Shown here: one piece after another, positions 11,350 through 62,863 of the stretch | Position numbering within the stretch: the first letter of the stretch is position 1 | How the letters are laid out: the number at the start of each line of letters is the position of its first letter | NCBI GenBank assembly: GCA_023436245.1 | Contig: JAEZJZ010000078.1 | Span: 79,758-143,757 of the forward strand | DNA: 64,000 nucleotides | Origin: Bacillota bacterium | GTDB lineage: Bacteria > Bacillota > UBA994 > UBA5500 | Direction of reading: 5' to 3' | Notes under the pieces: generated by a model | Seen by the model: only the letters and a program-made list of their open reading frames with translations | What the model was told of the DNA's origin: nothing | The model's database searches: none | Program-made: the position numbers and the translations under genes

Positions 11350-11634
11350 GTGCGGAAAGAGTCCTTTAGGTACATGTTTCTGGCCATGTTCGCTCTAGTA
11401 GGGTTCATGCTCCTGACAAATGGCAGGCCTCGTGTCCTTTGGCCTTTGTGTGCGATATTTGGCGGTATTGTCGCCCTGAACATGCCGGCAGAGTTCCTTA
11501 GAGGCTATGATTCCATCAAGGACAATGCTGGAGAGCTTCGAAGATTTGGATGCCTCAGGGTCATTGTGGGTTATGGGATGATAGCTGTCGGGCTGCTGTT
11601 TGCTCTTGCGTGGATCACCGGCGCAGAGTTCTAG
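11350..11634 (+). CDS. small two-TM membrane protein
   Basis: Hydrophobic segments MFLAMFALVGFMLL and VIVGYGMIAVGLLFALAWI. Start is uncertain. Confidence 0.3.
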   Translation: MRKESFRYMFLAMFALVGFMLLTNGRPRVLWPLCAIFGGIVALNMPAEFLRGYDSIKDNAGELRRFGCLRVIVGYGMIAVGLLFALAWITGAEF

Positions 11635-12066
11635 TTCGCGTCTTCTTCATCAGGCGCGAGAAGGCACTCGCTGTGACTGCCCGGTAACCAAGCTAACGTG
11701 GCCAGGATGTAGAAGACCCGCCGCGCGAGCGGTGGGTCTTCTGCTGCAAATACCGCCTGTTAGCTTACCAAGTCCATCGTTCTCGCAGCCGGGTGCCATT
11801 CACCTCTAGGCCTGAAGCGGGTTTGTCACGCTGATGACCTCCGCGATGCCTGCCTTCTCCAGCACGTCAGAGATGATGTTCGCGATTCCCTACTTGCCGA
11901 TAGCGAGCTGGCAGATCAGATAGACGGCAGTAGCATCGAATCGGCCATCGTGTGCCGACGTCTGCTCGCACCCGAAGGCTTCGCAAGCCCGGGCGGTTAC
12001 CTCGTCATCGCTAATGCTGGCATGTCCGAGGAACTCCTGCAGTGCTGGCCATCATGACTTGTCTCC

Positions 12067-12258
12067 TTACGCACTGGGTCCGCCGGATTTGCCCTTGGTA
12101 ATCACCGCAATAGCAATGCTACCAACGGTAACAGCCACACCCAAGGCGGTCTCCCCGACCTTGCGAAGAGTACGCCATTTTTTGTTTTGGCAGTTCTCGC
12201 AGGTGTCTTTGCTGGATTGCGGTATCTCCTTACCGCACTTCTTGCAAAACTTGCTCAT
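12067..12258 (-). CDS. small zinc-ribbon plus TM protein
   Basis: CKKCGK...CENCQ followed by hydrophobic GVAVTVGSIAIAVI. Overlaps the upstream gene stop by 4 nt. Confidence 0.35.
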   Translation of the reverse strand: MSKFCKKCGKEIPQSSKDTCENCQNKKWRTLRKVGETALGVAVTVGSIAIAVITKGKSGGPSA

Positions 12259-45242: not shown

Positions 45243-46121
45243 CTACTGGCTGTCTCGCCTGTCATCTGCTTCAGTGCTTGACACAACGGCGCTGGCTTCT
45301 TGCTTGTGCTTCATGACTTTCTCCAAGTACTCTCCCCAGTACTCCTCATCTCCATCGATATCCTGAAGCCAGTAGTACATGATTAACAGCTCGATATCCT
45401 GCTTGTGGCCCCTAACGAACGGCTTCCTGGAACACTTGGAGAATAGCGTATCAATATTGAAGAGGTTGCCCTTCTGCCTGTGGTCGTAATGGAGCATGCC
45501 ATTACTCAGCTTCTTACGGTGCCTGACCGGCCACTTATCATTGTGTTCGCAGAAGAAGTACGCGTATGAACAGGCGAAGGCTGGCATGCTGACCCCGTAT
45601 TTGGCCTCAGTGTGCTCAATCCACTCAGCAAACTCCGCGGTTACAAAAGGCACATCACGATTTCCAAGAGCGCTTGCTCTGACTCGCTGATGATCTTTGA
45701 TGAAGCGAAAGAGCATTTCTGTTTGGCTCTTCAGATACGGATGCTTCTTTACCAGGCTTGAGTAGCATTCGTAGGACATTGCTCTGAACTCGCTCTCTGA
45801 AGAGTAAAGCAGGAAGAGCTCATCTTCGTCGATGATGCCCCTCAGGAGTCTGTGCAGATAGTGTCCATGGTCTGCATACATCTGCAGCAGCCATTTCTGG
45901 ACATCGCCATCGTACTCATCAATAAGCTTCTGTAGCCGGTTGATTCTCTCCAGGTCAAGTGCATTGCGACTATCAATCTCTGTGATGTCGAGATAGTTGT
46001 TGAAATACTCAAAGACATAGCTCACGCATGCTTGGGTATTGTCAGATCTCTTCGACATATCGAACTCGTTTATCTGATCCTCCTGCTTTCGTTTGGCGAT
46101 ATACTCGTCGATCGTTAACAC
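45243..46121 (-). CDS. hypothetical protein (low GC), partner of the SLOG gene
   Basis: 292 aa with no recognisable domain. Directly downstream of 46205..46747 on the same strand. Confidence 0.45.
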   Translation of the reverse strand: MLTIDEYIAKRKQEDQINEFDMSKRSDNTQACVSYVFEYFNNYLDITEIDSRNALDLERINRLQKLIDEYDGDVQKWLLQMYADHGHYLHRLLRGIIDEDELFLLYSSESEFRAMSYECYSSLVKKHPYLKSQTEMLFRFIKDHQRVRASALGNRDVPFVTAEFAEWIEHTEAKYGVSMPAFACSYAYFFCEHNDKWPVRHRKKLSNGMLHYDHRQKGNLFNIDTLFSKCSRKPFVRGHKQDIELLIMYYWLQDIDGDEEYWGEYLEKVMKHKQEASAVVSSTEADDRRDSQ

Positions 46122-46204: not shown

Positions 46205-46747
46205 TCACCACCCGTAGAACTTCTTCGGATTGTAGATGACCAGCTCCCTTCCGGCCTTCCTCGCTCTGCAGACAGTATCATAGGTACCGCCTCGTTCCAC
46301 CTCAGTCCAGACAGCAAGAACTAAATCAGCCTGGTCGACCAAGTACTGGTTCCTGGCAAGTAGTTTCGCTGGGTCATATATGCCCACGGGAACCTTGGGG
46401 ACAGCGTACTCCGGAAGTTCATCAACTCGGACAACCTCATCGGCCACATCCAATCGATGCCGGTACCTTTGCCGGTGCTCCGGATCCCAGTGCTGCGCCT
46501 GGTCTGCATACGGCACCGCAGCAACAAGCCGTACTTCCGGGTGTAGCTGTTCCCGAATTTTGGTGCACACGTCAAAAGCCATGCTATCTACGCCAAGTGC
46601 CATACCGAAGAGAAAACGATCAGCCTTGCGTTTCTGGATGAACTCCAGCAGCCGCCGCGCCAGCTCTTGACGCATATACGCATAGTTTCGGTTGGGGCTG
46701 TATCCCCAAAGGCCGGTTGGGCGATGGCCAGTAACAGCTACGATCAT
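46205..46747 (-). CDS. SLOG-superfamily (YpsA/DUF1273-like) protein
   Basis: ATG at 46747 after GGAAGGTGGTG. MIVAVTGHRP...FLFGMALGVD...LVLAVW...GGT matches the Rossmann SLOG pattern. Confidence 0.5.
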   Translation of the reverse strand: MIVAVTGHRPTGLWGYSPNRNYAYMRQELARRLLEFIQKRKADRFLFGMALGVDSMAFDVCTKIREQLHPEVRLVAAVPYADQAQHWDPEHRQRYRHRLDVADEVVRVDELPEYAVPKVPVGIYDPAKLLARNQYLVDQADLVLAVWTEVERGGTYDTVCRARKAGRELVIYNPKKFYGW

Positions 46748-47033: not shown

Positions 47034-49643
47034 TTGGCATTCAAGAAGACACACAAAGCGATTTCCGCAGTTGCAAGTCCAGAGGAGTTGTTCATGGATC
47101 TCAGGAACAGATCTGTCCAGGGCCTGATGCTCCATCAAGGGGACATTCTGCGTGAGTACAAAAGGAAAATTCTCGACTCTGCCGATCCACCGCGGGACGT
47201 TGCTATCGAGTTGCCGACCGGAAGTGGCAAGACATTAGTTGGGCTCCTAATTGGTGAGTACCGACGGCGTGCGCTTGAGGAGCGAGTGTTATACCTGTGT
47301 CCAACCAAGCAACTTGTTCACCAGGTCGTAGCACAGGCGCGACAGAAGTACGGCATCAAGGCTCTTCCGTTTGTCGGGGCCCAATCAGCCTATGATCCGT
47401 CAGACCGTAGCGACTATCTCTTTGGTAGGGCGATCGCCGTGAGCACTTACAGTGGTTTGTTCAACTCCAATCCGTTCTTCAGCAACCCTGATACCATAAT
47501 CCTGGATGATGCCCACGTGGCAGAAAACTACATGGCCGCTATGTGGTCTTTGGAACTGCCCCGGTCGGAGTATCCAGAGGTTTACGAGTCAGTCATCAGG
47601 CTTCTGAAAGACCGAATACCTGATTACCAGCATGACAGAATGTTGGCTGGCGATCCGACGCCCAATGACAGGGCGGTGGTTGACAAAGTCCCCACCCCGG
47701 TCCTTATGGATATTTCGCGCAACCTGATAGCACTGCTTGACACCCGACTCAGGGAGAAGAGGGCGTCATACTCATGGAATGCGATTCGTGATCATCTGGC
47801 GGCGTGTCACCTATACTTCTGTTGGGACGGTATTCTCCTTAGGCCGATTATTCCCCCTACGATGACACATAGGCCGTTCGCTGAGGCCAAGCAGAGGCTC
47901 TACATGTCCGCGACTCTTGGGAAGGCCGGGGATCTTGAGCGCTCCACCGGGGTCAAGCGAGTCTCCAGGCTTAGTATACCGGGAGGATGGGATAGACAAG
48001 GAGTCGGTAGGAGGCTTTTCTTCTTCCCAGAGCTTAGCCTGACCCGAGATGAGACCGATTCCCTTGTGCTAAGCATGATTAAGAAGGTTCCGAGGGCACT
48101 GATTCTCGTCCCTGATAGTCAGTCAGCCCTAAAATGGAGAGAGCTCGTGGCTAGCTCGACTGACTATGCGGTGCTTGGTGCGCAGGATATCGAGACTTCA
48201 AAGGACCCCTTTGTTACCAAGAGACACGCAGTTGCCGTTCTCGCGAATAGGCTGGACGGAATCGACTTCCCTGAAGAGGAGTGTCGCTTGCTGATCGTGA
48301 GCGGCTATCCGCGAGCGACGAACCTGCAGGAGCGGTTTCTGCAGAGCCGAATGGCTGCTGCTTTCTTGCTGAGGGACCGTATCAAGGCACGGGTCCAGCA
48401 AGCCATTGGTCGTTGCACCAGAAGTGCGACCGATTACTCTGCGGTTTGTGTATTAGGGGCAGAGCTAAGCGATACTTTGCTCCACAAGGAAGACCGTACG
48501 CGATTCCATCCAGAACTGCAGGCTGAGTTGGACTTTGGGCGCCACCAGTGTATGGATACTAGCGCGGACGAAATGCTGGACAATCTTCGAATCTTTCTCG
48601 AGCATGGGGACGATTGGGATGCAGCCGATTCTGAGATCGTGCAAATCCGAACGGAGCTTACAGCCAGAGACGATCCTGCTGCCGAAAAACTGCGTCTTTC
48701 AGTTGAACACGAAGTGGCCTACGCATACGCGATCTGGAGAGGTGACTACCCGAAGGCCATTGAAGAGTGTGACAGTTCACTGGCAGCCCTGGTTGGGGAC
48801 GACGTGAAGGGATACCGTGGTTTTTGGAATTACCTTGCTGGTTGTGCCGCGCGTCTTGGCAGCCAGGCGGGACTCGTACATCTTGAACAGGTTGCAGTAA
48901 AGCATTTTCACTCAGCTTCAGCGTGTTCCGATTCTGTAGGCTGGTTCCGGGCTTTGGCGAATGATCAGCCCGGTCAACCAGAAGAGGAACAGGTGGTCTT
49001 CGAGCGAGAGCTTGTTGACGTCATCGAGCGGCTTGAGGCTGTGCTGGATGACATGGGTACCTCAAGTCCGCGCCGATTTGAGAAGGAAGCTAGCGAAATA
49101 CTGGAGCTCCTGAGCTCGACCGAGGCAAAGAAATTTGAGGCCGGACAGGTCAAGCTTGGTACCCTCCTAGGTTATAAGTCGAGCAATACTGATGGAAAGG
49201 CTGGCCCAGACCCCTGGTGGATTGCATCAGACACAGTCTGCTTGGTCTCAGAAGAGACTTGGAGAGAGAATGAGCTCTTCATCTCAGTCAACAAGGCGCG
49301 TCAAGCTGCGACACACGAGAGCTGGATAAGGGGGCACTTAGCCGACCTAAGTCCGAACGCTACCGTAGTGACAGTGTTCATAACAAATGCGACAGCTGTC
49401 GACGCAGAAGCCCTGACCCTCACCCCCAATCTCTACTACTGGGGCATACCTGAGTTTCGGACTTGGGCTGCCCATTCAATAGATGTCGTGCGAAGTCTTC
49501 GATCTCAGTTTCCCGGCCCGGGAGACATCATTTGGAGAGCATTGGCCATGGAGAAGTACAGAGAACATGCCATGGACCCCCTTTCCCTCGTGACCGCGGT
49601 TAAGGATAGACCCCTTAGCAAACTCGAGATCAGAAATCACTGA
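47034..49643 (+). CDS. SF2 helicase (DEAH-like) with about 400 aa uncharacterised C-terminal region
   Basis: TTG start after GGAGGTGAT. Motif I LPTGSGKT, motif II LDDAH, SAT, motif VI QAIGRCTR. No N-terminal HsdR-type nuclease domain. Confidence 0.7.
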   Translation: MAFKKTHKAISAVASPEELFMDLRNRSVQGLMLHQGDILREYKRKILDSADPPRDVAIELPTGSGKTLVGLLIGEYRRRALEERVLYLCPTKQLVHQVVAQARQKYGIKALPFVGAQSAYDPSDRSDYLFGRAIAVSTYSGLFNSNPFFSNPDTIILDDAHVAENYMAAMWSLELPRSEYPEVYESVIRLLKDRIPDYQHDRMLAGDPTPNDRAVVDKVPTPVLMDISRNLIALLDTRLREKRASYSWNAIRDHLAACHLYFCWDGILLRPIIPPTMTHRPFAEAKQRLYMSATLGKAGDLERSTGVKRVSRLSIPGGWDRQGVGRRLFFFPELSLTRDETDSLVLSMIKKVPRALILVPDSQSALKWRELVASSTDYAVLGAQDIETSKDPFVTKRHAVAVLANRLDGIDFPEEECRLLIVSGYPRATNLQERFLQSRMAAAFLLRDRIKARVQQAIGRCTRSATDYSAVCVLGAELSDTLLHKEDRTRFHPELQAELDFGRHQCMDTSADEMLDNLRIFLEHGDDWDAADSEIVQIRTELTARDDPAAEKLRLSVEHEVAYAYAIWRGDYPKAIEECDSSLAALVGDDVKGYRGFWNYLAGCAARLGSQAGLVHLEQVAVKHFHSASACSDSVGWFRALANDQPGQPEEEQVVFERELVDVIERLEAVLDDMGTSSPRRFEKEASEILELLSSTEAKKFEAGQVKLGTLLGYKSSNTDGKAGPDPWWIASDTVCLVSEETWRENELFISVNKARQAATHESWIRGHLADLSPNATVVTVFITNATAVDAEALTLTPNLYYWGIPEFRTWAAHSIDVVRSLRSQFPGPGDIIWRALAMEKYREHAMDPLSLVTAVKDRPLSKLEIRNH

Positions 49644-49903
49644 CACTGCCAGAACCATTTAGCCGAAACCACCTACTCGGAGACAGGCCTCTGAGCAGCA
49701 TAAGAGGATCTCCAAGCAGAGTCGCAAATGAGATAGAATAGACAACAACTAGATACACTTGTCGCCGCCTTACGGTGCGCAAGGGGTAGTCGGTTGGGAA
49801 GGTGGCATTATTCCAGAGGGCCCGCATCCACCGGCACCTTCACTCTTGGAATGCGCAAGCTCGGCGGAACAAGTAATGGCTGATGCCAGAAAAGAGGAGA
49901 AGC

Positions 49904-51688
49904 ATGGAGCTCAAGGAAGGTTATCTTTACGATTTCATCAGCGGAACCCCTGTTCGCGCCACCCCGGAAGAGATAGACGCGGTTCAGGTTTTCTCCCAAA
50001 TGTTAGTTAACGACTATGGCTATCCCAAGAAGCTCATTCAAACTCGTCCGCAATGGCGAGTGAAGGCCAGGCCGTCAGACACGAAGAAGGAGTATCCAAT
50101 AGACATAGCCGTTTTTTCTGATGAGCGCCACACAGAGGACAGCATCCAGATTATCGTCGAATGCAAGAAGAAGACCAGGAAAGACGGCAAGACACAGCTC
50201 GCTGACTATCTGAGATTTTCCAGAGCTCGAGTCGGTGTTTGGTTCAATGGTAAGGAACGCCTATTCCTTCATAAGCATGAGCAGGATGGGCGAGTTGAGT
50301 TCTCTGAGTTGCCCAATATTCCCCGGTTCGGCGAGAGAGTTGAAGACATTGGCCGATTCCGTCGACGGGACCTTAGGCCTGCAACCAACCTAAAGTCCGT
50401 TTTTCGGGCAATCCGAAACTATCTAGCAGCGAATGCCGTGGGCATCACCCGTGACGAAGTGTTCGCGCAGCAGCTCATAAACCTGATCTTCTGTAAGATC
50501 TACGATGAAAGGTTCACAAAGAAGAATGATATTGTGACCTTTCGTGCCGGTACCAACGAGCCTGATGCTGACGTTAGGGCCAGGATACTTGGGCTATTTG
50601 AGAAGGTCAAGTCTCAGTATGATGATGTAATTGATGTTGGCGACTCGATAGTCCTTGATGACCGCTCACTCGTCTACGTAGTAGGTGAGCTGCAGCTCTA
50701 CTCGCTGCAGGATAGCACAAGGGATGCTGTTGGAGATGCATTTGAGGTGTTCATCGGTCCGTCTCTGAAGGGTGGGCAGGGTCAGTTCTTCACCCCAAGA
50801 AACGTCGTGAAGATGATCATCGATATGGTTGATCCCACGCCAGAGCAAAAAGTCATCGATCCTGCGTGCGGCAGCGGCGGATTCCTTGTGGAGGCACTTC
50901 GCCACGTATGGGGGAAGGTGCAGGAGAAAGGCGAAAGCCTGGGATGGCCGGAACACGAGATTGAGGCCGAGAAGCAAAAGGTTGCAATCAGGAACTTCCG
51001 TGGCATAGACAAGGACTCTTTCTTGAGCAAAGTAGCCAAGGCGTATATGGCAATACTCGGCGATGGAAGGGGCGGTGTGTTCTGCGAGAATAGCCTTGAG
51101 TCTCCGGCCAACTGGCATAGCTACACAAGGAATCAGGTTCAGCTTAACGAGTTTGACGTAGTCATTACCAATCCACCTTTTGGCAAGAAGCTATCCATCG
51201 ATTCGGAAGACATTCTTAGGCATTACGACTTGGGTCACAAATGGGACTACGACAGCAGCACTGATACATTTCAGAAAGGCTCGCTCCAGGACAAGCAGCC
51301 TCCCCAAATACTGTTCATTGAGAGGTGCCTGGATCTTCTCAAGGACGGGGGGAAACTGGGCATTGTGCTGCTAGAGAGCATCTTTGGGATGCCCAAGTAT
51401 CGCTACGTTGTGGATTACCTCGAAAAGAGAACCAAGATTCTTGCACTGGTAACCATGCCTGAAGATCTATTCCAGCCTCACACACACGCCAAGTGCTGTG
51501 TCCTAATCTGCGAGAAGACCTCCGATCAGCAGGAAGACCACGAGATCTTCATGGCCGATGTGAAGTGGTGCGGCCACGATAGCCGTGGCAATCCCACTGT
51601 CCGGGTGGACTCGAGCGGCGCGGAGGTTCTCCTCGATGACATCCCTCGCGTTGCTCCTTTATACCACGAAGGGGCAAAACAGAGATGA
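49904..51688 (+). CDS. restriction-modification subunit: N-terminal HSDR_N-like PD-(D/E)xK nuclease fused to gamma-class N6-adenine methyltransferase (BcgI A-like/type IIB-IIG)
   Basis: N-terminus YPIDIAVF...IVECKKK (D/E-x-K). Methyltransferase motifs IDPACGSGGFL and NPPFG. Start could be ATG 49904 or 49883. Confidence 0.6.
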   Translation: MELKEGYLYDFISGTPVRATPEEIDAVQVFSQMLVNDYGYPKKLIQTRPQWRVKARPSDTKKEYPIDIAVFSDERHTEDSIQIIVECKKKTRKDGKTQLADYLRFSRARVGVWFNGKERLFLHKHEQDGRVEFSELPNIPRFGERVEDIGRFRRRDLRPATNLKSVFRAIRNYLAANAVGITRDEVFAQQLINLIFCKIYDERFTKKNDIVTFRAGTNEPDADVRARILGLFEKVKSQYDDVIDVGDSIVLDDRSLVYVVGELQLYSLQDSTRDAVGDAFEVFIGPSLKGGQGQFFTPRNVVKMIIDMVDPTPEQKVIDPACGSGGFLVEALRHVWGKVQEKGESLGWPEHEIEAEKQKVAIRNFRGIDKDSFLSKVAKAYMAILGDGRGGVFCENSLESPANWHSYTRNQVQLNEFDVVITNPPFGKKLSIDSEDILRHYDLGHKWDYDSSTDTFQKGSLQDKQPPQILFIERCLDLLKDGGKLGIVLLESIFGMPKYRYVVDYLEKRTKILALVTMPEDLFQPHTHAKCCVLICEKTSDQQEDHEIFMADVKWCGHDSRGNPTVRVDSSGAEVLLDDIPRVAPLYHEGAKQR

Positions 51689-53160
51689 TCCATTATTGGC
51701 ATAAGAAGAGTGATATCAAAGCCAGGGTGTATATCCCAAAGTACTATGACCCATTCCTAGTAGACGATCTCCAGTCGCTGAGGGACACTCATGACCTGTT
51801 TGTTGTAGAACAGCTTGTTAGCGAGGGTGCCATATCAATTAGCACAGGGCACGAGATAGGAAAGCTGGCTTACGGCACAGGTGATATACCATTCATTCGG
51901 ACATCGGACATATCAAACTGGGAAATCAAGTCCATGCCGAAGCAAGGCGTCTCAGAAGAGATCTATCAGGAGTACGCCGAGTCACAGGATATGCAGGTTG
52001 GAGACATATTGCTGGTGCGGGATGGAACCTATTTGATCGGAACCAACTGCATAGTCACTGAACTTGACAAGAAGTGTCTATATCAGTCGCACATTCTAAA
52101 AATCAGGGTCAACGATAAGGCAAAGGTTGATCCTCGAATACTGTTCCTTGCGTTGAACTCTGACTTGGTTCAGCGTCAGATTCGTAGCTTTCAGTTCACG
52201 GCCGATACCATTGACACAATCGGCAACCGTTACCTCGAGCTGGTGATCCCTATTCCGAAAAGCGCATCAAAGAGGAACGAGCTCTCCGGGAGAATCAGAA
52301 CCCACTTGGACACACGCGAGCGTGGCAGGGCGTTCATAAAGCAAGCCCCAGTTCTAATGGAGGAGGTACTTGAGAGAGGTACAGTTGAGCCAATCCAAGC
52401 CTTCATGGAGAAGGACTGGGCAGACATTCTATCTGACATGAGTCAGAATACCATTGTCTCTGAGTTTGGCCCCTTTCAGGCATTCTGGCAGCGATCAGGG
52501 AGCATTAGGGAAAGAATCTACCTACCTAAGTACTACGATCCTGAGATAGTGAGCGAACTTGCTGGCCTGGGAGAGACTTGCAATTGTGTTTCGATTGGCG
52601 ATCTCGTCAATGACGGCCTGATTCAGTGTTCCACCGGTGACGAAATCGGCAAGATGGCATATGGAACCGGCGAGATTCCGTTCATCCGGACTAGTGATTT
52701 CTCCAGCTGGGAGATCAACCATAACCCAAAGCAAGGGGTTTCGGATGAGATCTATGAGCAGTATGCCGACTCGCAGGATACCAGGAGCGGCGACATTTTC
52801 ATCGTGCGTGATGGCACCTATTTGGTAGGGACATCATGCATTGTCACTGAGCATGATGCCAAGAGTCTGTACTGTGGAGGAATCTACAAGATTCGTGTCC
52901 TGGATGAGTCTGCAATTAGCCCGTGGCTGCTGCTAGGATTGCTCAACTCGTTCATTGTGAAGCGCCAGATACGAACAAAGCAGTTTACCCGCGACGTCAT
53001 AGATACACTCGGTCAGCGACTGTTCGAGATTATCCTGCCGATACCTAAATCAAAGGAAGTGCGCGAGCAGATTTCCGAGCAGGTCAAGGAAATAGTCTTG
53101 TCGCGGATAGACGCCCGTCAGGCAATCTCCAAGTTGGCGGACGAGCTAATAGAGGGATAA
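51685..53160 (+). CDS. HsdS-like specificity subunit with two near-identical target-recognition domains
   Basis: Two halves share long identical stretches (IPKYYDP..., GDIPFIRTSD..., VRDGTYL.GT.CIVTE). ATGA overlap with the upstream gene. Confidence 0.75.
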   Translation: MIHYWHKKSDIKARVYIPKYYDPFLVDDLQSLRDTHDLFVVEQLVSEGAISISTGHEIGKLAYGTGDIPFIRTSDISNWEIKSMPKQGVSEEIYQEYAESQDMQVGDILLVRDGTYLIGTNCIVTELDKKCLYQSHILKIRVNDKAKVDPRILFLALNSDLVQRQIRSFQFTADTIDTIGNRYLELVIPIPKSASKRNELSGRIRTHLDTRERGRAFIKQAPVLMEEVLERGTVEPIQAFMEKDWADILSDMSQNTIVSEFGPFQAFWQRSGSIRERIYLPKYYDPEIVSELAGLGETCNCVSIGDLVNDGLIQCSTGDEIGKMAYGTGEIPFIRTSDFSSWEINHNPKQGVSDEIYEQYADSQDTRSGDIFIVRDGTYLVGTSCIVTEHDAKSLYCGGIYKIRVLDESAISPWLLLGLLNSFIVKRQIRTKQFTRDVIDTLGQRLFEIILPIPKSKEVREQISEQVKEIVLSRIDARQAISKLADELIEG

Positions 53161-53290
53161 CGGACGCTCGGTTGACGATCGATACACCAGCGAGGCCACG
53201 GAGCCTGCTGAACTGATACCTAGACATGATCGCAGAGCGAATCTCCAATCATTGGGCACATCCTGAGAATCTTTGGGAGGCTGATTCCTC

Positions 53291-54331
53291 ATGCCTGTAT
53301 GGCTTATTCGCGCGGGTGCGCACGGAGAGTATGAAAGCAAGTTTGTGCAGGAGAGCAGGATCTACGCAACGTGGGACAACCTCAACGCCGACTTAAGAAG
53401 GATGAACCACAAGGGTGATCTGATCTCCCTTATGGCCGAGAGATACCCTGACGCAAAGAAGAAGGCAGTCCAGAACTGGGCGAGTCAGGTCTGGCCTTTC
53501 GCCCATGAGATTAGCAAAGGCGATCTGGTTGTTCTTCCGTTGAAGTCACAACCAGCGATACAGATCGGAGAGGTAGTGAGCGATTATCGCTTTGAGGCTG
53601 CCGGACCAAGCCCGTTCTATCATTGGCGGTCCGTGAAGTGGATAGGTGAGGCGATTCCGCGAGCCAACTTTGGTCAGGACCTTCTTTACTCTTTTGGCGC
53701 ATTTATGACAATCTGCCGTATACAGCGAAATAACGCTGAAGAACGTATAGTTGCAATGCGCACCAATGGCTGGAAGAAAGAGAATCTGGCTGTCATCAGT
53801 GCTGCCACTCCAACGTCAGTCATCCAGGATGAAGCTGGCGCCGACAACACAGATCTTGAGGTACTGGCGCGTGACCAAATAGCTCAACTTATCTCAGCTA
53901 GGTTCAAGGGGCATAACCTGACCCGCCTGGTAGACGCGATTCTTAGGTCGCAAGGGTATGTCACTTATGTCAGTCCTGAAGGGCCGGATGGCGGAGTGGA
54001 CATTCTTGCCGGCGCCGGCCCGCTGGGGTTTGGCGCTCCGCGTCTCTGTGTTGAAGTGAAGTCTGGTGACGCACCTATTGATAGACCCAGTGTGGATAAG
54101 CTGCTGGGAGCTGTCGCCAAGTTTGGTGCACAGGAGGGGCTGTTCGTGTCCTGGAGCGGGTTCAAGAGCAACGTGCAGAAAGAGTTGGCTGCCAGCTTCT
54201 TTCGGGTAAGGCTTTGGACCCAGACAGAGCTGCTAGAAGCGTTGTTTGCCAACTATGACAAACTGGATGAAGATATCAAAGCGGAGCTACCCTTGAAGCG
54301 ATTTTGGACAGTGGCTGTTCAGAACGAGTAG
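53291..54331 (+). CDS. Mrr-like restriction endonuclease (Mrr_N plus Mrr_cat)
   Basis: N-terminal winged-helix-like region. C-terminal VDILAG...LCVEVKSGD catalytic core. Confidence 0.55.
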   Translation: MPVWLIRAGAHGEYESKFVQESRIYATWDNLNADLRRMNHKGDLISLMAERYPDAKKKAVQNWASQVWPFAHEISKGDLVVLPLKSQPAIQIGEVVSDYRFEAAGPSPFYHWRSVKWIGEAIPRANFGQDLLYSFGAFMTICRIQRNNAEERIVAMRTNGWKKENLAVISAATPTSVIQDEAGADNTDLEVLARDQIAQLISARFKGHNLTRLVDAILRSQGYVTYVSPEGPDGGVDILAGAGPLGFGAPRLCVEVKSGDAPIDRPSVDKLLGAVAKFGAQEGLFVSWSGFKSNVQKELAASFFRVRLWTQTELLEALFANYDKLDEDIKAELPLKRFWTVAVQNE

Positions 54332-54450
54332 TACCGCTGCTCGCTCTAGTATACTGAGCGAAGTGACTCGCAATCGACTCGATAGGGGTGAAGACTGCAG
54401 ATTGACCTAGATGGGCAGAGCCAGAGCTGCTCGCTGGAGGATTGAGGAAC

Positions 54451-55446
54451 ATGGATCCATGGGATAACCTCCCTGAACTGAACAAGAAGGCAGAACGGTA
54501 TCTGAAGAAGGCTCAGGATCTTTTGATGTACTGCACAACATGCCAACCCTATGATCAGGGGCCTGTATGGGTCTTGGGTGAAGAGACGACTGTTGACGAG
54601 CTCTTTGATATCGTTGCCTGCCCTGAGGCCTACAGGGATGACATCGCGGCGCACCTCCAATGCCCTAGCTGCGGCGCAATGATCTCCGATAGATATGCCG
54701 ACATTGGTTTGGAGGACCGGTATGCCAGACACGCCGAGCAAACATATGAGCGTGCGGTCAAGCGCTACCGCCGGAGGATCGATGCTCTGCGTGAACACCT
54801 GAACCACTTTCCCTCACTTGCCCTACACAACGCCTTCGCGAGAACGCTCTTGGCGGAGATAACTGGGAAGAGAGCCGAGAGTGTCTGCATCTCCGAAAGG
54901 AGATGGTTCCGCTCTCGGAACCTCGAGGGGGCCAAGGTATTTGAGTGCGAGAACATGTGGGCTCCGAGTGAAGGGCTGTCACCTGGCGGCCGATTTCATC
55001 ATGCAGGGCAAAGTGTGCTTTATGTTGCAGACTCCAAGGAACTAGCGATCAGGGAATCGCTTGCCAGAGCTGACGAGCCATCACTGATTTGGTATCAGGA
55101 GTACTCTCTCGAATCAGATTTGGAGGACGTACTCGACCTTAGGTATGATTGGGAAAACTATGGACAGATGTCCAATGGTCTTCTTGCCGCCTTGCTGGCC
55201 AGTGGAGTCTTGTCAGAACCTGTGGCTGACAGAAGCAACAAATGGCAACCGCAATACTTTATAACACGCTTCATAGCGGATTGCGCAAAACTGTCTGGCT
55301 ATAAAGGCATCATTTACACATCTACGAAATACGACGGAACTAATCTGGCAGTGTTTGATAGTGCCAATCTTTTCGTGTCGGTTGGAAAGCCTCAGGTATA
55401 CATCTATCGTCCTTCCGAGCAGACAGTGTTCCGATTCAGCATATAG
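54451..55446 (+). CDS. RES-domain protein with about 170 aa N-terminal zinc-ribbon extension
   Basis: GGRFHHAGQSVLYVADSKELAIRE...GIIYTSTKYDG gives R, E and S in the canonical spacing. N-terminus has CTTCQP...CPSCG. Confidence 0.55.
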   Translation: MDPWDNLPELNKKAERYLKKAQDLLMYCTTCQPYDQGPVWVLGEETTVDELFDIVACPEAYRDDIAAHLQCPSCGAMISDRYADIGLEDRYARHAEQTYERAVKRYRRRIDALREHLNHFPSLALHNAFARTLLAEITGKRAESVCISERRWFRSRNLEGAKVFECENMWAPSEGLSPGGRFHHAGQSVLYVADSKELAIRESLARADEPSLIWYQEYSLESDLEDVLDLRYDWENYGQMSNGLLAALLASGVLSEPVADRSNKWQPQYFITRFIADCAKLSGYKGIIYTSTKYDGTNLAVFDSANLFVSVGKPQVYIYRPSEQTVFRFSI

Positions 55447-55557
55447 CAATCCAGATTCCAGTTTGCCTGGTGTAGCATTGTCCGCGTTCGACTCTGACAC
55501 CATCTGTGTATTCTTCATGCGCTAAAGGGTGGTCCCGGCGTCGGCAAGTCCAGTTTC

Positions 55558-56529
55558 ATGCGTTGGATCGGGCAAGCGATGCGTGAACGTGGCTACGATA
55601 TCGAGGAGCACAACTGTTCTTCAGACAACGGGTCCCTGGATGGCGTGAAGATCCCGGCGATCGGGGTTACTCTGCTAGACGGAACTGCACCGCACGTAGT
55701 CGACCCTAAGAACCCGGGCGCAGTGGACAGCATCATCCACCTCGGCGATTACTGGAATGAGGAAGGCATTCGTGCCCACAAGGCCGAGATAGTTGCGGCC
55801 ATTGCTCGCAACGGCTTCCTGTTCCGCCGCGCCTACGGCTACCTGCGCGCAGCCAAGGGCTACAACGATGAGTTGGAAGCATACATAAGGGAGACAGGAG
55901 CGCTGGATGTGGCTGGGCTGAACCGGCTGGCGGCTGACACCATCAGCGGCATTTTCGCTGCGGCCCCGGCAAAGGATGGGGCAGCGAAGGAGCGCCATCT
56001 CTTTGCCAGTGCCATCACGCCCGGAGGCATGGTCAACTATCTGTCCACCATCGTCGGCGACCTTGACCGCCGCGTGTTGGTGCAGGGACGCCCCGGCAGC
56101 GGTCGCACCACCATCGTGCAGAAGGTGATGTCCGCAGCCGTCGAGCTGGGGTATGATGTGGAGGCTTACCACTGCGCGCTGAGTCCAGAGCGCATCGACC
56201 ATGTCGTCATCCCCGAGCTTTCTGTGGCCGTGATGAACGCCAGCGAGCCGCACTCCTACGGCCCCGGGACCAATGATTGGGTGATCGACACCATGCAGTA
56301 CGTCGATTGGGCCAAGTTGGCCAGCTTCGACCATGACATTCTTCGCCTGACCAGGCTGTACCACGAGGCCTTGGACTCTGCCGTCTGCATGATCGCCCGC
56401 GCCAAGAAGAACCACGACCAGATCGAGACCTACTACGTGCCGCACATGGATTTCGCCGCTGTCACCAAGCGCCGCGAGCAGGTGCTGCAGCGCATTTTGC
56501 AGATCGCGGCCCGGGTGGAGACTAAGTAG
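55558..56529 (+). CDS. tandem P-loop (nucleotide-kinase-like) domain protein; reading frame opens at 55498 with no canonical start (possible pseudogene)
   Basis: Walker A GGPGVGKS lies upstream of the first ATG and is in frame. A second P-loop GRPGSGRTT heads an internally duplicated domain. Only CTG/ATT codons and no SD between the stop at 55495 and the P-loop. Confidence 0.35.
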   Translation: MRWIGQAMRERGYDIEEHNCSSDNGSLDGVKIPAIGVTLLDGTAPHVVDPKNPGAVDSIIHLGDYWNEEGIRAHKAEIVAAIARNGFLFRRAYGYLRAAKGYNDELEAYIRETGALDVAGLNRLAADTISGIFAAAPAKDGAAKERHLFASAITPGGMVNYLSTIVGDLDRRVLVQGRPGSGRTTIVQKVMSAAVELGYDVEAYHCALSPERIDHVVIPELSVAVMNASEPHSYGPGTNDWVIDTMQYVDWAKLASFDHDILRLTRLYHEALDSAVCMIARAKKNHDQIETYYVPHMDFAAVTKRREQVLQRILQIAARVETK

Positions 56530-56548
56530 AGTCGACCTCAGTTTCGGT

Positions 56549-56590
56549 AAGTTGAAGGGCAGGCCCTGCCACTGGGGCCTGCCCTTCATG
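56549..56590. terminator. bidirectional hairpin terminator between convergent genes
   Basis: GAAGGGCAGGCC-loop-GGCCTGCCCTTC, a 12-bp perfect stem. Confidence 0.45.
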
Positions 56591-56639
56591 TTGTGCCCGG
56601 TCTCTCCGCCCAGGTTCGCTTGAGTTCGCGAAACTGCGC

Positions 56640-56948
56640 TCAGCAGTTGCTCATGAAGTCTTCTTCATCCAAATCTTCGTCCGACTCATAAATGGAGAGA
56701 TCGGCAGTCTCCTTCGCCAGATAGCCGATGATCAACCATGTGCAATCCTTTGTTTTGGCGAGTTCCAGAGCGGCCAACAAACTTGGTTCATGTTCGGACA
56801 CCGTGTAGGATGATACATGCAGCATCCAGCCCTCTCCATTCAATGAAAACGCACTGGGTTTGGCCTCGGCCTCAAGGCGGTTTCGCAGTTCATGATGCGC
56901 CTGCTTCGAGATGTTGTTCCAACCAACTTCCAATACCTTTGACACCAT
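56640..56948 (-). CDS. hypothetical protein with acidic C-terminus
   Basis: 102 aa. C-terminus SIYESDEDLDEEDFMSNC. Confidence 0.35.
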   Translation of the reverse strand: MVSKVLEVGWNNISKQAHHELRNRLEAEAKPSAFSLNGEGWMLHVSSYTVSEHEPSLLAALELAKTKDCTWLIIGYLAKETADLSIYESDEDLDEEDFMSNC

Positions 56949-57129
56949 TTGCGCTTACCTCCCTCCTGACTTCGCACGTGTTTGTCCAGAAGAACACCCA
57001 ACGCAGCACCCAGAGCTGCGGTATGCTTGGTTTTCCCCCAGGGCTGTCAGGCCGTCAGGTCATGCTCCCCAAACGCATAGCGCAGAATCTGCAGGGCAGC
57101 TACGATCATTCTCCTGTACCTGCCTCGTC

Positions 57130-57855
57130 TCACGGTAGGTACTCCGCTTCCCGGAAGAGCCACTGGGTGTAGGCGGTTCGCACCTGCGGATAGGCTGCTC
57201 GGGACACTGGCACCCGCCGTCCAGCCAGGGTGATCAGTTCGTTCGGTCGCAGTTCCTGCACCCACTGCAGGTTCACCAGGTAGGAGCGATGCACCTTGAT
57301 GAAGCCTGGACGTGTCAGTAGCGCGCGCTCGAACTCGGACAGATTACCAGATACCTGCTTTGAGCTGCCATCGGTCAGCCCGAAGTAGAGCTGCTTGGCA
57401 TTGACCTCCAGGTACTCTATCCTCCCATATGGCAGGCTGAACATGCCGGATTGCGTTCTGACGCGCAGTGCTTCTTCCGGTCTACGCAAATTGTCCCTCA
57501 ACCGGTCAAGGATGGGAAAGAGCTTCTCCGGCGAGGCTGGCTTCAGCAGGTAGTGATGCGCCCGCACACTGTAGCTTTCCACCGCAAATTCCGGCGTAGA
57601 GGTCAGGAAGACAATCTCCACCTGGCTGTTGAACTCCCGCACTTCGTGGGCGGCCTGCATCCCGTTCAGCCCTGGCATCAGGACATCCAGCAACAGCAAG
57701 TCGTACTGCTCGCTCTGCATGGAGGCCAGCAGTTCCAGCGCACTTTGGAAGCTGAGGTAGCTGAGCTCTGCCTTACGCTCGCGTCGGTATGCTTCTACTA
57801 GGGACGCGATTCGTAGCAGTTCTTGCTTGTCATCGTCGCAAATGGCAATCCGCAA
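57130..57855 (-). CDS. LytTR-family two-component response regulator
   Basis: REC domain (RIAICDDD...LLLDVLMPGLNG). C-terminal LytTR (FIKVHRSYLVNL). TTG at 57855, 8 nt after GAGGAG. No kinase gene nearby. Confidence 0.7.
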   Translation of the reverse strand: MRIAICDDDKQELLRIASLVEAYRRERKAELSYLSFQSALELLASMQSEQYDLLLLDVLMPGLNGMQAAHEVREFNSQVEIVFLTSTPEFAVESYSVRAHHYLLKPASPEKLFPILDRLRDNLRRPEEALRVRTQSGMFSLPYGRIEYLEVNAKQLYFGLTDGSSKQVSGNLSEFERALLTRPGFIKVHRSYLVNLQWVQELRPNELITLAGRRVPVSRAAYPQVRTAYTQWLFREAEYLP

Positions 57856-58492: not shown

Positions 58493-61400
58493 ATGGTGCT
58501 AGGAATGAAAGTGGCGCAGAAGACTCAACGGTTGCTTGCATTGCTGATGCTGACTGTGTTGACCAGTCTGTGGTTCAACCCGCCAGCAGCGCAGGCAGGC
58601 ACTCTGAACATTGTCACAGCTAATTACGCAGGCGTTCCCAGCGACGCATTCGAGTACGTTAAGTTCACCGTTGAGCGGGCTAGCCTCTACGAACTAAAAA
58701 CCAGTTCTTACCTGCAGGACTGCGATACGGAGCTCTGGTTGTTTGACAGTGACTACGGCCTAATTGAGGAAAACGATGATTACGTAGACCTGTACTCCTA
58801 CATCAGTCGTCGCCTTGATGCGGGGACGTACTACTTCGTGGTCACGGAGGTAGGGGGAGGTCCTCTCTATTGCCATTTCGAGATTAACGACCTCGAGGCA
58901 ATGACGCCCGCGACCACCCCGAGCGCTAGCTTCTCCTTTGATGGTGAGAGTGCGGGCAAGCTGATGGGCACCACGGCGCAGATGACGTGCTCGCTGGATG
59001 GGGGCCACAACTGGGCTCGTTGCACCGCGCCGAGTACAGACCTGTCCGGCGCTCTGGGCAGCATCAGAACGCACCTCGACATCAAGGTTAAGAACCTGGG
59101 CGATGGAGTCACCACCATCGAGTCTGCGGTGCAGACCATCGACATCACCCGGGCTGCCGAGCCGACCACGGCCGGCAAGGTGGACTGCAGCACGCTGGCC
59201 AATAACGACGGCAAGCTGACCGGCGTGAGCGCGGCCATGGAGTATAGGCTCTATTCCGACAGCAGTTGGATCAGCGGCACCGGCAGTGATATCACCGGCT
59301 TGCAGAGCGGCACCTATTTCGTCCGGGTAAAGGCGACGGGCACAGTGATGGCTTCAGGCCCGCAGACTCTGGTCATCAACGCCTACGTCGGCACACCCGC
59401 GACTACCCCCAGCGCAATCTTCTCCTTTGACGGGAGCGATGCGGGCAAATTGCTCGGCACCACTGAGCAGATGCGGCACTCGCTGGACGGCGGCTACACC
59501 TGGTTGCCTTGCACCGCGCCGAGTACAGTCCCGGCCGGCACTATCGGCAAGAACTACGACATCAGAGTCAAGGACATGGGGGATGGCGTCAACACCACCG
59601 AGTCTCAGGTGCAGACCATCGATATCACCCAGGCTGCCGCGCCGACCACGGCCGGCAAGGTGGACTGCAGCACGCTGGCCAACAACGACGGCAAGCTGAC
59701 CGGCGTGACCACGGCTATGGAGTACTGGAGCTACACCGACGGAACATGGGTCAGCGGCACCGGCAGCGATATCACCGGCTTGCAGAGCCGCACCTATTTC
59801 GTCCGCGTAAAGGCGACGGGCACAGTGTTGGCTTCAGACCCGCAGATTCTGGTCATCAACGCCTACGTCGGCACACCCGCGACTACCCCCAGCGCGACTT
59901 TCTCCTTTGATGGCGATGACGCCGGCAAGCTGCTCGGCACCACTGAGCAGATGCGGTACTCGCTGGACGGCGGCAGTACTTGGGTTGCTTGCACCGCGCC
60001 AAATACCAATCTTTCCGACTATGTGAGCAGTATCAATGAAGATGACGACATCAAGGTCAAGGACCTGGGCGATGGAGTCACCATTACCGAGTCTGCGGTA
60101 CAGACCATCGACATCACCCAGGCGGAGGTGCCCACGGCTGACAAGGTGAATTGCGCCACGCTGGCCAACAACGACGGCAAACTGACCGGCGTAACCACGG
60201 CTATGGAGTACAAGCTCTCTACCGCCGTCACCTGGACCAGCGGTACCGGCAGCGATATCACCGGCTTGACCACCGGCAACTATTACGTCCGCGTCAAGGC
60301 AACGGGCACGGTGCAGGCGTCCGACGAGCAGACTGTGACCATCAACGCCTATAGCGGCACGCCCGCAGCACGCCCGAACACAACCTTCTCCTTCGACGGT
60401 ATCGATGCGGGCAAGCTACTCGGCACCACCGCGCAGATGAAGTACTCGCTGGACGGGGGCAGTACCTGGATTGCTTGCACCGCGCCAAGTACCAGTCTTT
60501 CCGACGCTGTGAGCAGCATTAATGAAGACGACGATATCCAAGTTAAGGACATGGGAGATGGCGTCACCACCATCGAGTCTACGGTGCAGACGATCAACAT
60601 CATCCGGGCGAACACTCCCACGGCTGGCAAGGTGGACTGCACTACGCTGACCAACAACGACGGCAAGCTGACTGGCGTGACCACGGCCATGGAGTATAGA
60701 CTCTCCTCCACCGGCTCCTGGGTCAGCGGCACGGGCAGCGACATCACTGGTTTGGCTAGTGGCACCTACGATGTTCGCGTCAAAACCGCCGGCACGGCTC
60801 TGGCGTCCGACGTGCAGACTTTGACCATCAACGCCTATAGCGGCACGCCCGCAGCACGCCCGAACACAACTTTCTCCTTCGACGGTATCGATGCGGGCAA
60901 GCTACTCGGCACCACCGCGCAGATGAAGTACTCGCTGGACGGGGGCAGTACCTGGATTGCTTGCACCGCACCGAATACCAGTCTTTCCGACGCTGCGAGC
61001 AGCATCAATGAAGATGACGACATCAAGGTTAAGAACCTGGGCGATGGAGTCACCACCATCGAGTCTGCGGTGCAGACCATCGACATCACCCAGGCTGCGA
61101 GGCCGACCTTAGTTGCCACGGAACCCAGCACCACCGGCGGTAACGGCAGTATCCCGCTGACCACTGAGCACGAGTACAGACTGTCTGGCGCGATTGACTG
61201 GATTTCCGCTGAAGGGACTACGTCCCTTGCCCCTGGCAATTACCTCGTCCGCGTCAAAGCGACGGGCACAGTGTTGGCTTCCGAAACGCAGAGCATCACG
61301 CTGACAACTTTCACCGGGAATCCCGAGAGCACTCCCGCAGCAGTTGCGGACTATGCGGCCGAAGAGCTGACCAATCTCACGGCCGACGGCAGCTATGCTG

Positions 61401-62863
61401 TGAACGGGACCAACGTCAGCGCCGACTCCGCAGGCAAGCTGGCCATCGAAAGCGACTGGCTCGGGACCACCATTTCGCTGGTGAAGAAAGGCGATGGTGT
61501 CACAACCAATGATAGCGAGGCACAGAGCCTGGTTCTCGCGGCGCGGCCGGCAGTTCCCGCGTGCACGGCGACGCAGCCTTCCGCCAGTGCTGCTACCGGC
61601 ACTGTTTCCGGCATTACCGAGGAGATGCAGTATTCCATCGACAATGGGACCAGTTGGGTCGACGGAACCGGCAGTGCTGTCACCGGACTTGTGCCTGGAA
61701 CGGTGTTCATTCGCGTGAAGGCCACCGGCAGCGCTCCGGCGAGTAGCAGTCAGACGCTCACAATCACGGCCTACAGCGCACCACCCATTGACGAAGACAG
61801 CGGCAGTTCCTCTGGTAACAGCGGCAACCCCGTCCCGGCCCCGGTCACCGAGATCAGCAGCGGCGGCAGCACAACTGGCTCCAATCTCAACCAACTAGTT
61901 TCTACGAGCAAAACTCTGACTGTCTCCGGCGATGATGGCGCCAAGTTGGTGTTTGATATCGATGCCTTGCAGGGAATCGCCGGTCAGACCGCGGACGGCA
62001 TCAGCGTGGAGTTGCGAGATGTATCCCCAGAGCATCAGGACAACCACCCCGGCAAGCGGGTGTTCACGCTGACCGTCAGCTCCGGCGGCAAGACCATCAG
62101 CGAGTTCGGTGGTTCCGTCACCGTTACCCTGCCCTATGCCCTGCAGGATGGGGAAGAGCCCGAGGACGTGACCGTCTGGTACCTGGCTGATGACGGCACC
62201 ATGACCGAGATCTTCTGCGCTTACGACCCGGTAACCGGGTTGGCTACCTTCCAGGTCAGCCACTTCTCGCGCTATGTCGTGGGCACTGCGCTGGAGGAGA
62301 CTGTGCCGCAGGAGGTTCATTTCTCCGATGTGCGGGAGGGCGACTGGTTCCATGGCGTGGTGCGATACGTCGCGGACCAGGGATTGATGGGCGCGACCAG
62401 TGGTGCATCTTTCAGCCCTCAGGGCACCACTACTCGCAGCCTGCTGGTTACCATACTCTGGCGACTGGAACATGAGCCAAAGGCAACTACGACCGCGGTC
62501 TTCTCCGACGTGCTGCCGGGCGAGAGCTATGCTGAGGCAGTGGCCTGGGGCGCCGAGAACGCTCTCGTCGGCGGCTACTCCGCTTCACGCTTTGGCCCGG
62601 ATGACAATATCACCCGCGAGCAACTGGCGGTGTTCCTCTACCGTTACGCCAAGTACAAGGGCGCTGACGTGAGTGCACGCGGCGATCTGACCGTGTTCAA
62701 AGATAAGCCATCGGCCTATGCGCGAACCAGCGTGCAGTGGGCAGTGGCCAAGGGTTTGCTCCGGGGTAATGGCAGCAGCGATTTCCTCGACCCAACCGGC
62801 GGCGCCACGCGCGCGCAGCTGGCGGCAATTCTGCAGAGGTTCATTGAGAACGTGCTGAAGTAG
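58493..62863 (+). CDS. S-layer homology (SLH) domain cell-surface protein with PPC-like N-terminal domain and about eight 160-aa tandem repeats
   Basis: Signal peptide. DTELWLFDSDYG...YYFVV matches the PPC pattern. Repeated TPATTPSA.FSFDG..AGKLLGTT...VRVKATGTV units. Three C-terminal SLH motifs (FSDV..., FSDVLPG..., FKDK...). Confidence 0.8.
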   Translation: MVLGMKVAQKTQRLLALLMLTVLTSLWFNPPAAQAGTLNIVTANYAGVPSDAFEYVKFTVERASLYELKTSSYLQDCDTELWLFDSDYGLIEENDDYVDLYSYISRRLDAGTYYFVVTEVGGGPLYCHFEINDLEAMTPATTPSASFSFDGESAGKLMGTTAQMTCSLDGGHNWARCTAPSTDLSGALGSIRTHLDIKVKNLGDGVTTIESAVQTIDITRAAEPTTAGKVDCSTLANNDGKLTGVSAAMEYRLYSDSSWISGTGSDITGLQSGTYFVRVKATGTVMASGPQTLVINAYVGTPATTPSAIFSFDGSDAGKLLGTTEQMRHSLDGGYTWLPCTAPSTVPAGTIGKNYDIRVKDMGDGVNTTESQVQTIDITQAAAPTTAGKVDCSTLANNDGKLTGVTTAMEYWSYTDGTWVSGTGSDITGLQSRTYFVRVKATGTVLASDPQILVINAYVGTPATTPSATFSFDGDDAGKLLGTTEQMRYSLDGGSTWVACTAPNTNLSDYVSSINEDDDIKVKDLGDGVTITESAVQTIDITQAEVPTADKVNCATLANNDGKLTGVTTAMEYKLSTAVTWTSGTGSDITGLTTGNYYVRVKATGTVQASDEQTVTINAYSGTPAARPNTTFSFDGIDAGKLLGTTAQMKYSLDGGSTWIACTAPSTSLSDAVSSINEDDDIQVKDMGDGVTTIESTVQTINIIRANTPTAGKVDCTTLTNNDGKLTGVTTAMEYRLSSTGSWVSGTGSDITGLASGTYDVRVKTAGTALASDVQTLTINAYSGTPAARPNTTFSFDGIDAGKLLGTTAQMKYSLDGGSTWIACTAPNTSLSDAASSINEDDDIKVKNLGDGVTTIESAVQTIDITQAARPTLVATEPSTTGGNGSIPLTTEHEYRLSGAIDWISAEGTTSLAPGNYLVRVKATGTVLASETQSITLTTFTGNPESTPAAVADYAAEELTNLTADGSYAVNGTNVSADSAGKLAIESDWLGTTISLVKKGDGVTTNDSEAQSLVLAARPAVPACTATQPSASAATGTVSGITEEMQYSIDNGTSWVDGTGSAVTGLVPGTVFIRVKATGSAPASSSQTLTITAYSAPPIDEDSGSSSGNSGNPVPAPVTEISSGGSTTGSNLNQLVSTSKTLTVSGDDGAKLVFDIDALQGIAGQTADGISVELRDVSPEHQDNHPGKRVFTLTVSSGGKTISEFGGSVTVTLPYALQDGEEPEDVTVWYLADDGTMTEIFCAYDPVTGLATFQVSHFSRYVVGTALEETVPQEVHFSDVREGDWFHGVVRYVADQGLMGATSGASFSPQGTTTRSLLVTILWRLEHEPKATTTAVFSDVLPGESYAEAVAWGAENALVGGYSASRFGPDDNITREQLAVFLYRYAKYKGADVSARGDLTVFKDKPSAYARTSVQWAVAKGLLRGNGSSDFLDPTGGATRAQLAAILQRFIENVLK
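58900..61100. repeat. long in-frame tandem DNA repeats (about 480-490 bp units) within the S-layer gene
   Basis: Successive units start near 58906, 59398, 59880, 60360 and 60845. The last two are nearly identical at the DNA level. Confidence 0.7.

Follow-up and report, generated by a model that had tools for sequence, protein, structure and literature searches.

The gene at positions 54451..55446 (+ strand) of a 64,000-nt stretch of Bacillota bacterium DNA (assembly GCA_023436245.1, contig JAEZJZ010000078.1, positions 79,758 to 143,757; the whole stretch is referred to below as the window) encodes a RES protein with an N-terminal Cys4 extension. We propose, with a probability of about 0.6, that this protein is a single-gene, self-contained NADase that acts by abortive infection in the manner of aRES, with a different regulatory or sensor domain. 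The aRES proteins are standalone RES proteins, encoded in defence islands, and guard E. coli against a diverse range of phages (Osterman et al., January 2026, bioRxiv 10.64898/2026.01.28.702374). The gene and the parts of its product are as follows (residue numbers are those of the 331-residue protein).

54436..54441, + strand: Shine-Dalgarno sequence GGAGGA, read from the sequence, 9 nt before the ATG at 54451
54451..55446, + strand: RES gene, coding sequence of 331 amino acids, stop codon TAG at 55444-55446
54451..54714, + strand: N-terminal Cys4 alpha/beta module (putative Zn-binding), residues 1-88
54532-54534, + strand: C28
54541-54543, + strand: C31
54661-54663, + strand: C71
54670-54672, + strand: C74
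54715..54870, + strand: helical linker/regulatory region, residues 89-140, from the AlphaFold2 (AF2) secondary structure
54895..55410, + strand: RES domain (ADP-ribosyltransferase (ART) fold), residues 149-320
54910-54912, + strand: predicted active-site residue R154
54991-54993, + strand: predicted active-site residue R181
55021-55023, + strand: predicted active-site residue Y191
55054-55056, + strand: predicted active-site residue E202
55321-55323, + strand: predicted active-site residue S291
55342-55344, + strand: predicted active-site residue N298

The open reading frame (ORF) ends at 55446 (+) and could start at TTG 54442 or at ATG 54451. The spacing of GGAGGA and the matching M-D-x-x-D with which the homologues begin favour the ATG, and therefore the 331-residue protein is the likely product. 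An identical protein is called on ENA and Logan contigs, including a 281-kb metagenomic scaffold, and its NCBI label is only 'RES family NAD+ phosphorylase'. All motifs quoted in the initial annotation of the window, namely the R...E...S residues of a C-terminal RES domain and the cysteine motifs that precede them, are present in the ORF, confirming that a standalone RES protein with an N-terminal Cys4 extension is real and was correctly described.

The assignment to the RES family made there holds as well. The PF08808 profile matches residues 172-307 with 51 bits (gathering cutoff 23.2; E 2.2e-13) and also matches 42 of 42 database homologues and 51 of 52 homologues derived from genomic loci. 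The RES domain is modelled with an ART-like fold that is superposable on solved RES toxins. A sequence search of the PDB gives marginal matches only, to ParT and RES (E 0.15-0.6), and a fold search of BFVD gives weak, generic ART matches only. In an alignment of about 95 family sequences (database homologues and fetched genomic loci), residues C28, C71, C74, R154, R181, Q187, Y191, W265, and D277 are invariant, and C31, E202, S291, and N298 are kept in 85-98%, the last three of them in at least 90%. The active site of NatT consists of R23, R82, Y93, S184, and N193, and NatT and MbcT are RES toxins that act as NAD+ phosphorylases (PMC11535050). Mapped by motif order, these NatT residues appear to have conserved counterparts, in the same order, in the window protein. 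Judged from its homologues MbcT, NatT, and aRES, the most likely reaction of the RES domain is phosphorolysis of NAD+, which yields nicotinamide and ADP-ribose (ADPR)-1''-phosphate.

Residues 1-150 folded alone give a confident AF2 model (predicted local distance difference test score 87.7). The model predicts first a helix, then a strand that runs into the C28xxC31 knuckle, another strand, and a pair of helices; the C71xxC74 knuckle with its hairpin comes next, then a helix of 30 residues and two short ones that end ahead of the first RES strand. The linker comprises the long helix (residues 90-119) and the two short helices and carries a conserved P121-S-L motif, in which P121 and L123 are invariant or nearly so across the family alignment. 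The cysteines are spaced C-x2-C-x39-C-x2-C, and the four of them are inferred to bind zinc. The N-terminal domain matches no known family and has no Pfam family; no PDB structure resembles it significantly, and none of the papers that we found mentions it.

Searching 1.84 billion representatives with a profile of the N-terminal domain (E up to 1e-3) retrieves 230 clusters (50% identity level). The RES domain is carried by 101 of the 104 matches whose C-terminal tail is long enough; the tails of the remaining three are just 60-75 residues long and seemingly truncated. No other effector is seen on the N-terminal domain in this search. The domain is therefore dedicated to this RES domain, in contrast to accessory domains that are promiscuous. 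The initial annotation had taken the architecture to imply a fused sensor or antitoxin domain. The data support the regulatory or sensor part of that statement and do not support the antitoxin part: the domain has no sequence or fold similarity to Xre/MbcA/ParS antitoxins and no helix-turn-helix (HTH).

The same architecture, proposed for a search in other genomes, is indeed found there. The database search gives 43 clusters, nearly all of 330-340 residues with 95-99% query coverage. A locus scan with one genome per species gives 78 loci, with 53 full-length relatives, or 54 full-length loci with the window (fetched loci are designated L with a number below). The relatives belong to Bacillota, Bacteroidota, Planctomycetota, Spirochaetota, Omnitrophota, Elusimicrobia, Nitrospirota, Acidobacteriota, Gemmatimonadota, and Verrucomicrobia. 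Overall identity across phyla is 25-50%, yet the catalytic and cysteine residues are invariant. Judged from these relatives, the protein is a member of a conserved standalone family and no orphan toxin. A search for carriage by phages gives no match in 50,697 phage records, and one for carriage by plasmids gives only four Priestia megaterium plasmid records at 24.6% identity.

The absence of an upstream Xre/DUF2384 antitoxin gene is borne out; the upstream gene encodes an Mrr-type endonuclease. A small antitoxin ORF that had escaped annotation was looked for in both spacers. On the coding strand, neither the 119-nt upstream spacer nor the 111 nt between the RES stop and the next start codon (55558) contains an ORF of at least 40 codons. 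The upstream spacer has only two short imperfect direct repeats, Rfam gives no match over 53000-57200 at E up to 1, and promoter and terminator matches in a scan at the RES locus are at background level. Identical tools detect PF09722 (the Xre/MbcA/ParS C-terminal domain) beside a short RES gene in L077, and the negative result is therefore meaningful.

A conserved partner is equally absent from the family at large. In an all-versus-all BLAST of the ORFs within 4 kb of the gene at the 54 loci, supplemented by a comparison of directly adjacent same-strand ORFs, no neighbour is common to more than eight loci. The commonest neighbours are N6-adenine methyltransferases of restriction-modification (RM) systems (8 of 54 loci). 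The ORFs directly upstream and downstream vary in size, strand, and sequence and are unrelated to one another except among close relatives; as an exception, two loci have a 261-residue membrane protein upstream in common. The upstream Mrr gene of the window is no conserved partner of RES.

The genomic context of the homologues supports a location in defence islands and mobile elements, by a qualitative judgement that is not scored against genomic background. In Desulfosporosinus (L085), the RES gene lies with McrB-McrC, Abi_C, type III RM, and SIR2-TPR genes. In Brevibacillus fulvus (L086), the RES, Mrr, AbiJ, and integrase genes come after the end of a prophage (holin, amidase, LexA-like, YolD). 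A Bacteroidota contig (L087) has SLFN, HNH, RES, Nmad2, PLD, and Mrr, and L084 is an element with an integrase and an excisionase. When 130 neighbouring proteins are scanned with PADLOC (E up to 1e-10), the matches include type I specificity subunits, mad3/mad5, PD-Lambda-2_B, and GajA. The Bacillus toyonensis plasmid CP170573 (L089) carries three standalone RES genes in 7.6 kb (5292-12888) together with MrcB-HNH; the family member (331 residues) is flanked by two RES genes of the PF18870 type (340 and 380 residues). The three-gene arrangement also occurs in the related contigs L008 and L090, and it looks like diversification of the sensor domain on one effector.

We compared the family with aRES in detail. 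The aRES proteins are defined as having 300-600 residues and both RES and PF18870 (HEPN/RES-NTD1) at an hhsearch probability above 80%, and they occur in about 4% of genomes (10.64898/2026.01.28.702374). Upon infection, growth is arrested and NAD+ is depleted to ADPR-1''-phosphate, a product that the phage system NARP1 is unable to recycle; mutation of the active site abolishes defence (10.64898/2026.01.28.702374). The window protein (331 residues) is within this size range and is likewise standalone without an operonic partner, located in a defence island (qualitatively), and equipped with a homologous RES domain. In both, a Cys4 motif stands at the start of the N-terminal region, helices come next, and RES follows. 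The heads differ, with PF18870 in aRES and a Cys4 domain without PF18870 here; the cysteine spacing is CC-x2-C-x18-C-x2-C in the PF18870 type versus the spacing given above; the RES signature is GRANPxGIS in the PF18870 type versus GGRFHHxGQS here; and this family is much rarer than aRES. RES fused to HEPN/RES-NTD1, in some cases with a further N-terminal Zn ribbon, was described in conflict systems in a comparative-genomic survey (Anantharaman et al. 2013, PMC3710099); the presence of N-terminal accessory domains is common to those proteins and ours, but the architecture there is that of PF18870.

For a profile-profile comparison, a protein with PF18870 and RES from a fetched locus was expanded to at least 120 relatives, many of them annotated with PF18870. 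The RES domains of the two families are homologous (hhalign probability 99.6-99.7%, E 5.6e-24 to 3.3e-27), and hhalign pairs R181/Y191/E202/S291/N298 with the conserved R226/Y236/E247/S338/N345 of the PF18870 type. The N-terminal regions are not detectably related (hhalign probability 2.7%, with only a CxxC aligned). PF18870 gives no match in the window protein at E up to 5 and is not among the matches listed for the 42 and 52 members scanned, lists from which at most one match each is missing. Precomputed Pfam annotations show it in none of the 43 homologues but in many aRES-type proteins. Membership of aRES by way of PF18870 is therefore rejected, both hmmscan and the profile-profile comparison being negative. 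For the genera bearing this family, Table S2 of the aRES authors, which gives IMG gene IDs without sequences, contains only an unrelated Brevibacillus entry. The RES domain of the family is about as close to short RES proteins with GRFHHxGQS (hhalign E 1.3e-24) as to aRES, whereas the aRES-type RES domain shows far less similarity to the short proteins (E 3.3e-6). Therefore, the family is no mere nested subgroup of aRES.

The DSR1/DSR2 SIR2 proteins and the SIR2- or TIR-fused Avs proteins act by abortive infection through NAD+ loss. The logic is shared, in that one polypeptide in a defence island combines an NADase with a separate sensing or regulatory region. The effector folds are unrelated (ART/RES here, SIR2/TIR there), the expected product is ADPR-1''-phosphate rather than ADPR, and the protein here is much smaller and lacks both an NTPase and a sensor of the repeat type.

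In characterised systems, a RES domain without a guard is toxic. As no partner gene is found, the N-terminal domain is the obvious candidate for both the off-switch and the receiver of the cue. In the mechanism that we propose, the Cys4 module and the helical linker would form a dedicated regulatory or sensor domain that keeps the RES enzyme silent in uninfected cells; a phage-derived cue would release the enzyme, whereupon NAD+ would collapse and the cell would enter arrest, leaving the phage unable to replicate. Toxicity, autoinhibition by the N-terminal domain, and the phage trigger are inferred, as is the NAD+ phosphorolysis. A more specific proposal, to which we assign a little less than even odds, is that the family is a distinct single-gene antiphage system that has gone unrecognised so far and constitutes a second class of aRES, in which the Cys4 domain replaces HEPN/RES-NTD1 as sensor and autoinhibitor of a RES NAD+ phosphorylase. 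If so, the phage cue of the second class would differ from that of aRES, and aRES-specific phage inhibitors could fail against it where they rely on the N-terminal domain. The three adjacent RES genes of B. toyonensis would then be an example of sensors diversifying on a shared effector that depletes NAD+.

Several observations weigh against the proposal of an aRES-type abortive-infection NADase. ParT, another RES protein, ADP-ribosylates a protein and does not deplete NAD+, so that the chemistry is not fixed by RES membership. The N-terminal domain is unrelated to that of aRES or to any known sensor, and how it regulates or senses is a guess. PADLOC v2 has no model that matches the RES protein, and some homologues, for example in L081 (among transporters and resistance genes) and in L082, have less clearly defensive surroundings. 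In a Treponema subclade, a gene for a 103-residue Xre/CI-type HTH protein lies about 50 nt upstream on the same strand. The protein matches HTH_3 (E 3.5e-11) and lacks PF09722 (DUF2384), and its gene is the sole recurrent regulator-like neighbour found. Some family members may thus have a partner. The Treponema genes are located as follows.

L044, 1392-1703: HTH neighbour
L047, 7593-7913: HTH neighbour
L048, 7466-7903: HTH neighbour
L049, 7511-7903: HTH neighbour

These Treponema genes also bear on a rival explanation, in which the protein is a type II toxin whose antitoxin is fused in cis and removed proteolytically, or is encoded elsewhere or unrecognised, with a role in dormancy under stress or in persistence. 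Besides the HTH gene directly upstream in Treponema, the strong similarity of the RES domain to the short GRFHHxGQS proteins, one of which (L077) has a PF09722 antitoxin gene upstream, speaks for it, and the N-terminal domain is always attached to RES, as a dedicated neutraliser would be. We nevertheless consider it unlikely. The N-terminal domain resembles no Xre/MbcA/ParS antitoxin and has no HTH, the window spacers contain no small ORF, and the neighbours are not conserved. The NCBIfam model of type II RES/ParT toxins (NF049844) scores 19.9 bits against a cutoff of 110, with only residues 178-212 matching. In the type II toxin–antitoxin systems of the Xre-RES kind (MbcTA, ParST, NatRT, and P. 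putida Xre-RES), an Xre/DUF2384 gene is adjacent, whereas none is adjacent here; the toxins there are about half the size of the window protein, which also has a dedicated N-terminal domain; and they are parts of autoregulated two-gene cassettes, whereas this family is found in defence islands and on mobile elements. About equally unlikely is an ADP-ribosyltransferase that is directed at a macromolecule, as ParT is at Prs, or that modifies a phage protein or nucleic acid, with the Zn domain recruiting the target; the precedent of ParT points in this direction, and the homology with MbcT, NatT, and aRES points to NAD+ phosphorolysis.

It is less probable still that the protein is a component of a multi-gene system with the adjacent Mrr gene or with the RM-like helicase, methyltransferase, and specificity genes. 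Five genes (47034-55446) do lie on the same strand with short gaps, with no convincing terminator or promoter between Mrr and RES, and Mrr/McrB-type genes recur upstream in L085, directly downstream in L086, and two genes downstream in L087; the DUF8426 N-domain is found both on the window Mrr and on the nearby McrB of L085. However, the position, strand, and identity of the neighbours vary, with Mrr/DUF8426-type genes at 3 of 54 loci and methyltransferases at no more than the eight already mentioned. PADLOC models PDC-S02, which the window Mrr matches, as a single-gene candidate, many homologues have no nuclease neighbour at all, and the co-occurrence of unrelated systems is typical of defence islands. 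Least probable, and by our estimate very improbable, is a non-defensive or decaying gene, such as a cargo remnant of a mobile element without current function. The family is rare, with about 230 clusters among the 1.84 billion representatives; frameshifted or split copies occur at L005, L031, and L066; and the ATPase gene next to the window RES gene is truncated. Yet the window gene has an uninterrupted ORF and a good ribosome-binding site, AF2 gives confident models, and the invariance of the catalytic and cysteine residues at 25-50% identity indicates purifying selection.

RES-mediated NAD+ phosphorolysis has only recently been shown in phage defence, and the published definition of aRES covers the PF18870 head only. 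In the family described here, which is standalone and spread over many phyla, an effector of the same type is joined to another N-terminal domain that is unrelated to the first. The family is missed both by PADLOC and by that definition. Should it prove functional, it would add to the number of NAD+-depleting immune systems, offer a compact 331-residue system for studying how a small zinc-binding domain gates a toxic enzyme, and provide a natural comparison for the swapping of sensor domains on one effector. The advance is incremental and not conceptual, since both the chemistry of the effector and the principle of abortive infection by a standalone protein were known before.

In the window, the RES gene ends a block of same-strand genes whose GC content is below that of the flanks. 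The genes of this block that precede it, and the gene that follows it, are listed here.

47034-49643, + strand: DinG-like helicase, PADLOC candidate PDC-S28, E 1.5e-102
49883-51688, + strand: N6-adenine methyltransferase
51685-53160, + strand: specificity subunit
53291..54331, + strand: Mrr-type restriction endonuclease with DUF8426 N-domain, PADLOC candidate PDC-S02, E 6e-153
55498..56529, + strand: PRK06851-family P-loop ATPase gene, 5'-truncated, preceded by an in-frame stop at 55495-55497

Homology of the truncated ATPase to NF005320 starts at model position 36, and the Walker A motif GGPGVGKS (55528-55551) and about 20 homologous codons precede its first possible start codon (55558). The truncation is consistent with a scar of the insertion of the island, marking its right edge; the missing 5' fragment of the PRK06851 gene is not found at the presumed left end. 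The lower GC content and the truncated ATPase gene directly 3' of the RES gene indicate that the island was horizontally acquired.

The methyltransferase has an HSDR_N_2 N-domain, and a match to the MADS component mad2 covers its full length (E 1.2e-51); the specificity subunit has a mad5-like match, and the truncated ATPase a weak match to mad8. The 47034-53160 block could be a MADS-related or atypical type I-like system. The DUF8426 domain that heads the window Mrr also heads the McrB GTPase (L085, 4620-6644) upstream of the RES gene of Desulfosporosinus metallidurans.

Two further groups of RES proteins were encountered among the fetched loci. Spirochaete relatives of 234 residues keep the helical linker and lack the Cys4 module; each of their genes is preceded, with a 16-nt gap, by a radical SAM gene (345-367 residues), and the two may form a two-gene system. 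In several Rhodobacteraceae, a short RES gene (151-175 residues, GRFHHxGQS) directly follows a thioredoxin reductase-like gene, a likeness judged from the sequence, with no antitoxin gene between them.

L056, 6963-8720, with equivalent positions in L058, L060, and L062: radical SAM and 234-residue RES pair
L072, 6964-8486: short RES and thioredoxin reductase-like pair
L073, 6985-8414: short RES and thioredoxin reductase-like pair
L074, 2947-4553: short RES and thioredoxin reductase-like pair
L076, 7096-8549: short RES and thioredoxin reductase-like pair

NUDIX enzymes process ADP-ribose derivatives, and in Sutcliffiella horikoshii CP082918 a NUDIX hydrolase gene (L081, 9267-9701) follows the RES homologue on the same strand, at this one locus only. 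On the left side of the low-GC island in the window lies a YpsA/SLOG-family gene (46205-46747, - strand; Pfam E 5e-17), adjoined by an unannotated gene for a 292-residue protein (45243-46121, - strand). SLOG domains bind nucleotides or ADP-ribose derivatives, so that this gene could conceivably be linked to NAD+-centred conflict. An acidic 102-residue ORF (56640-56948, - strand) with a sub-threshold match to DUF5983 (E 3.8e-5, 24.3 versus 27 bits) separates the truncated ATPase gene from a gene for a LytTR response regulator. Further downstream, and unrelated to the RES finding, a gene at 58493-62863 (+ strand) encodes a secreted protein of 1456 residues with about six tandem repeats of about 150 residues (TPA..P..TFSFDG...KV.ATGT...S) and C-terminal SLH domains.
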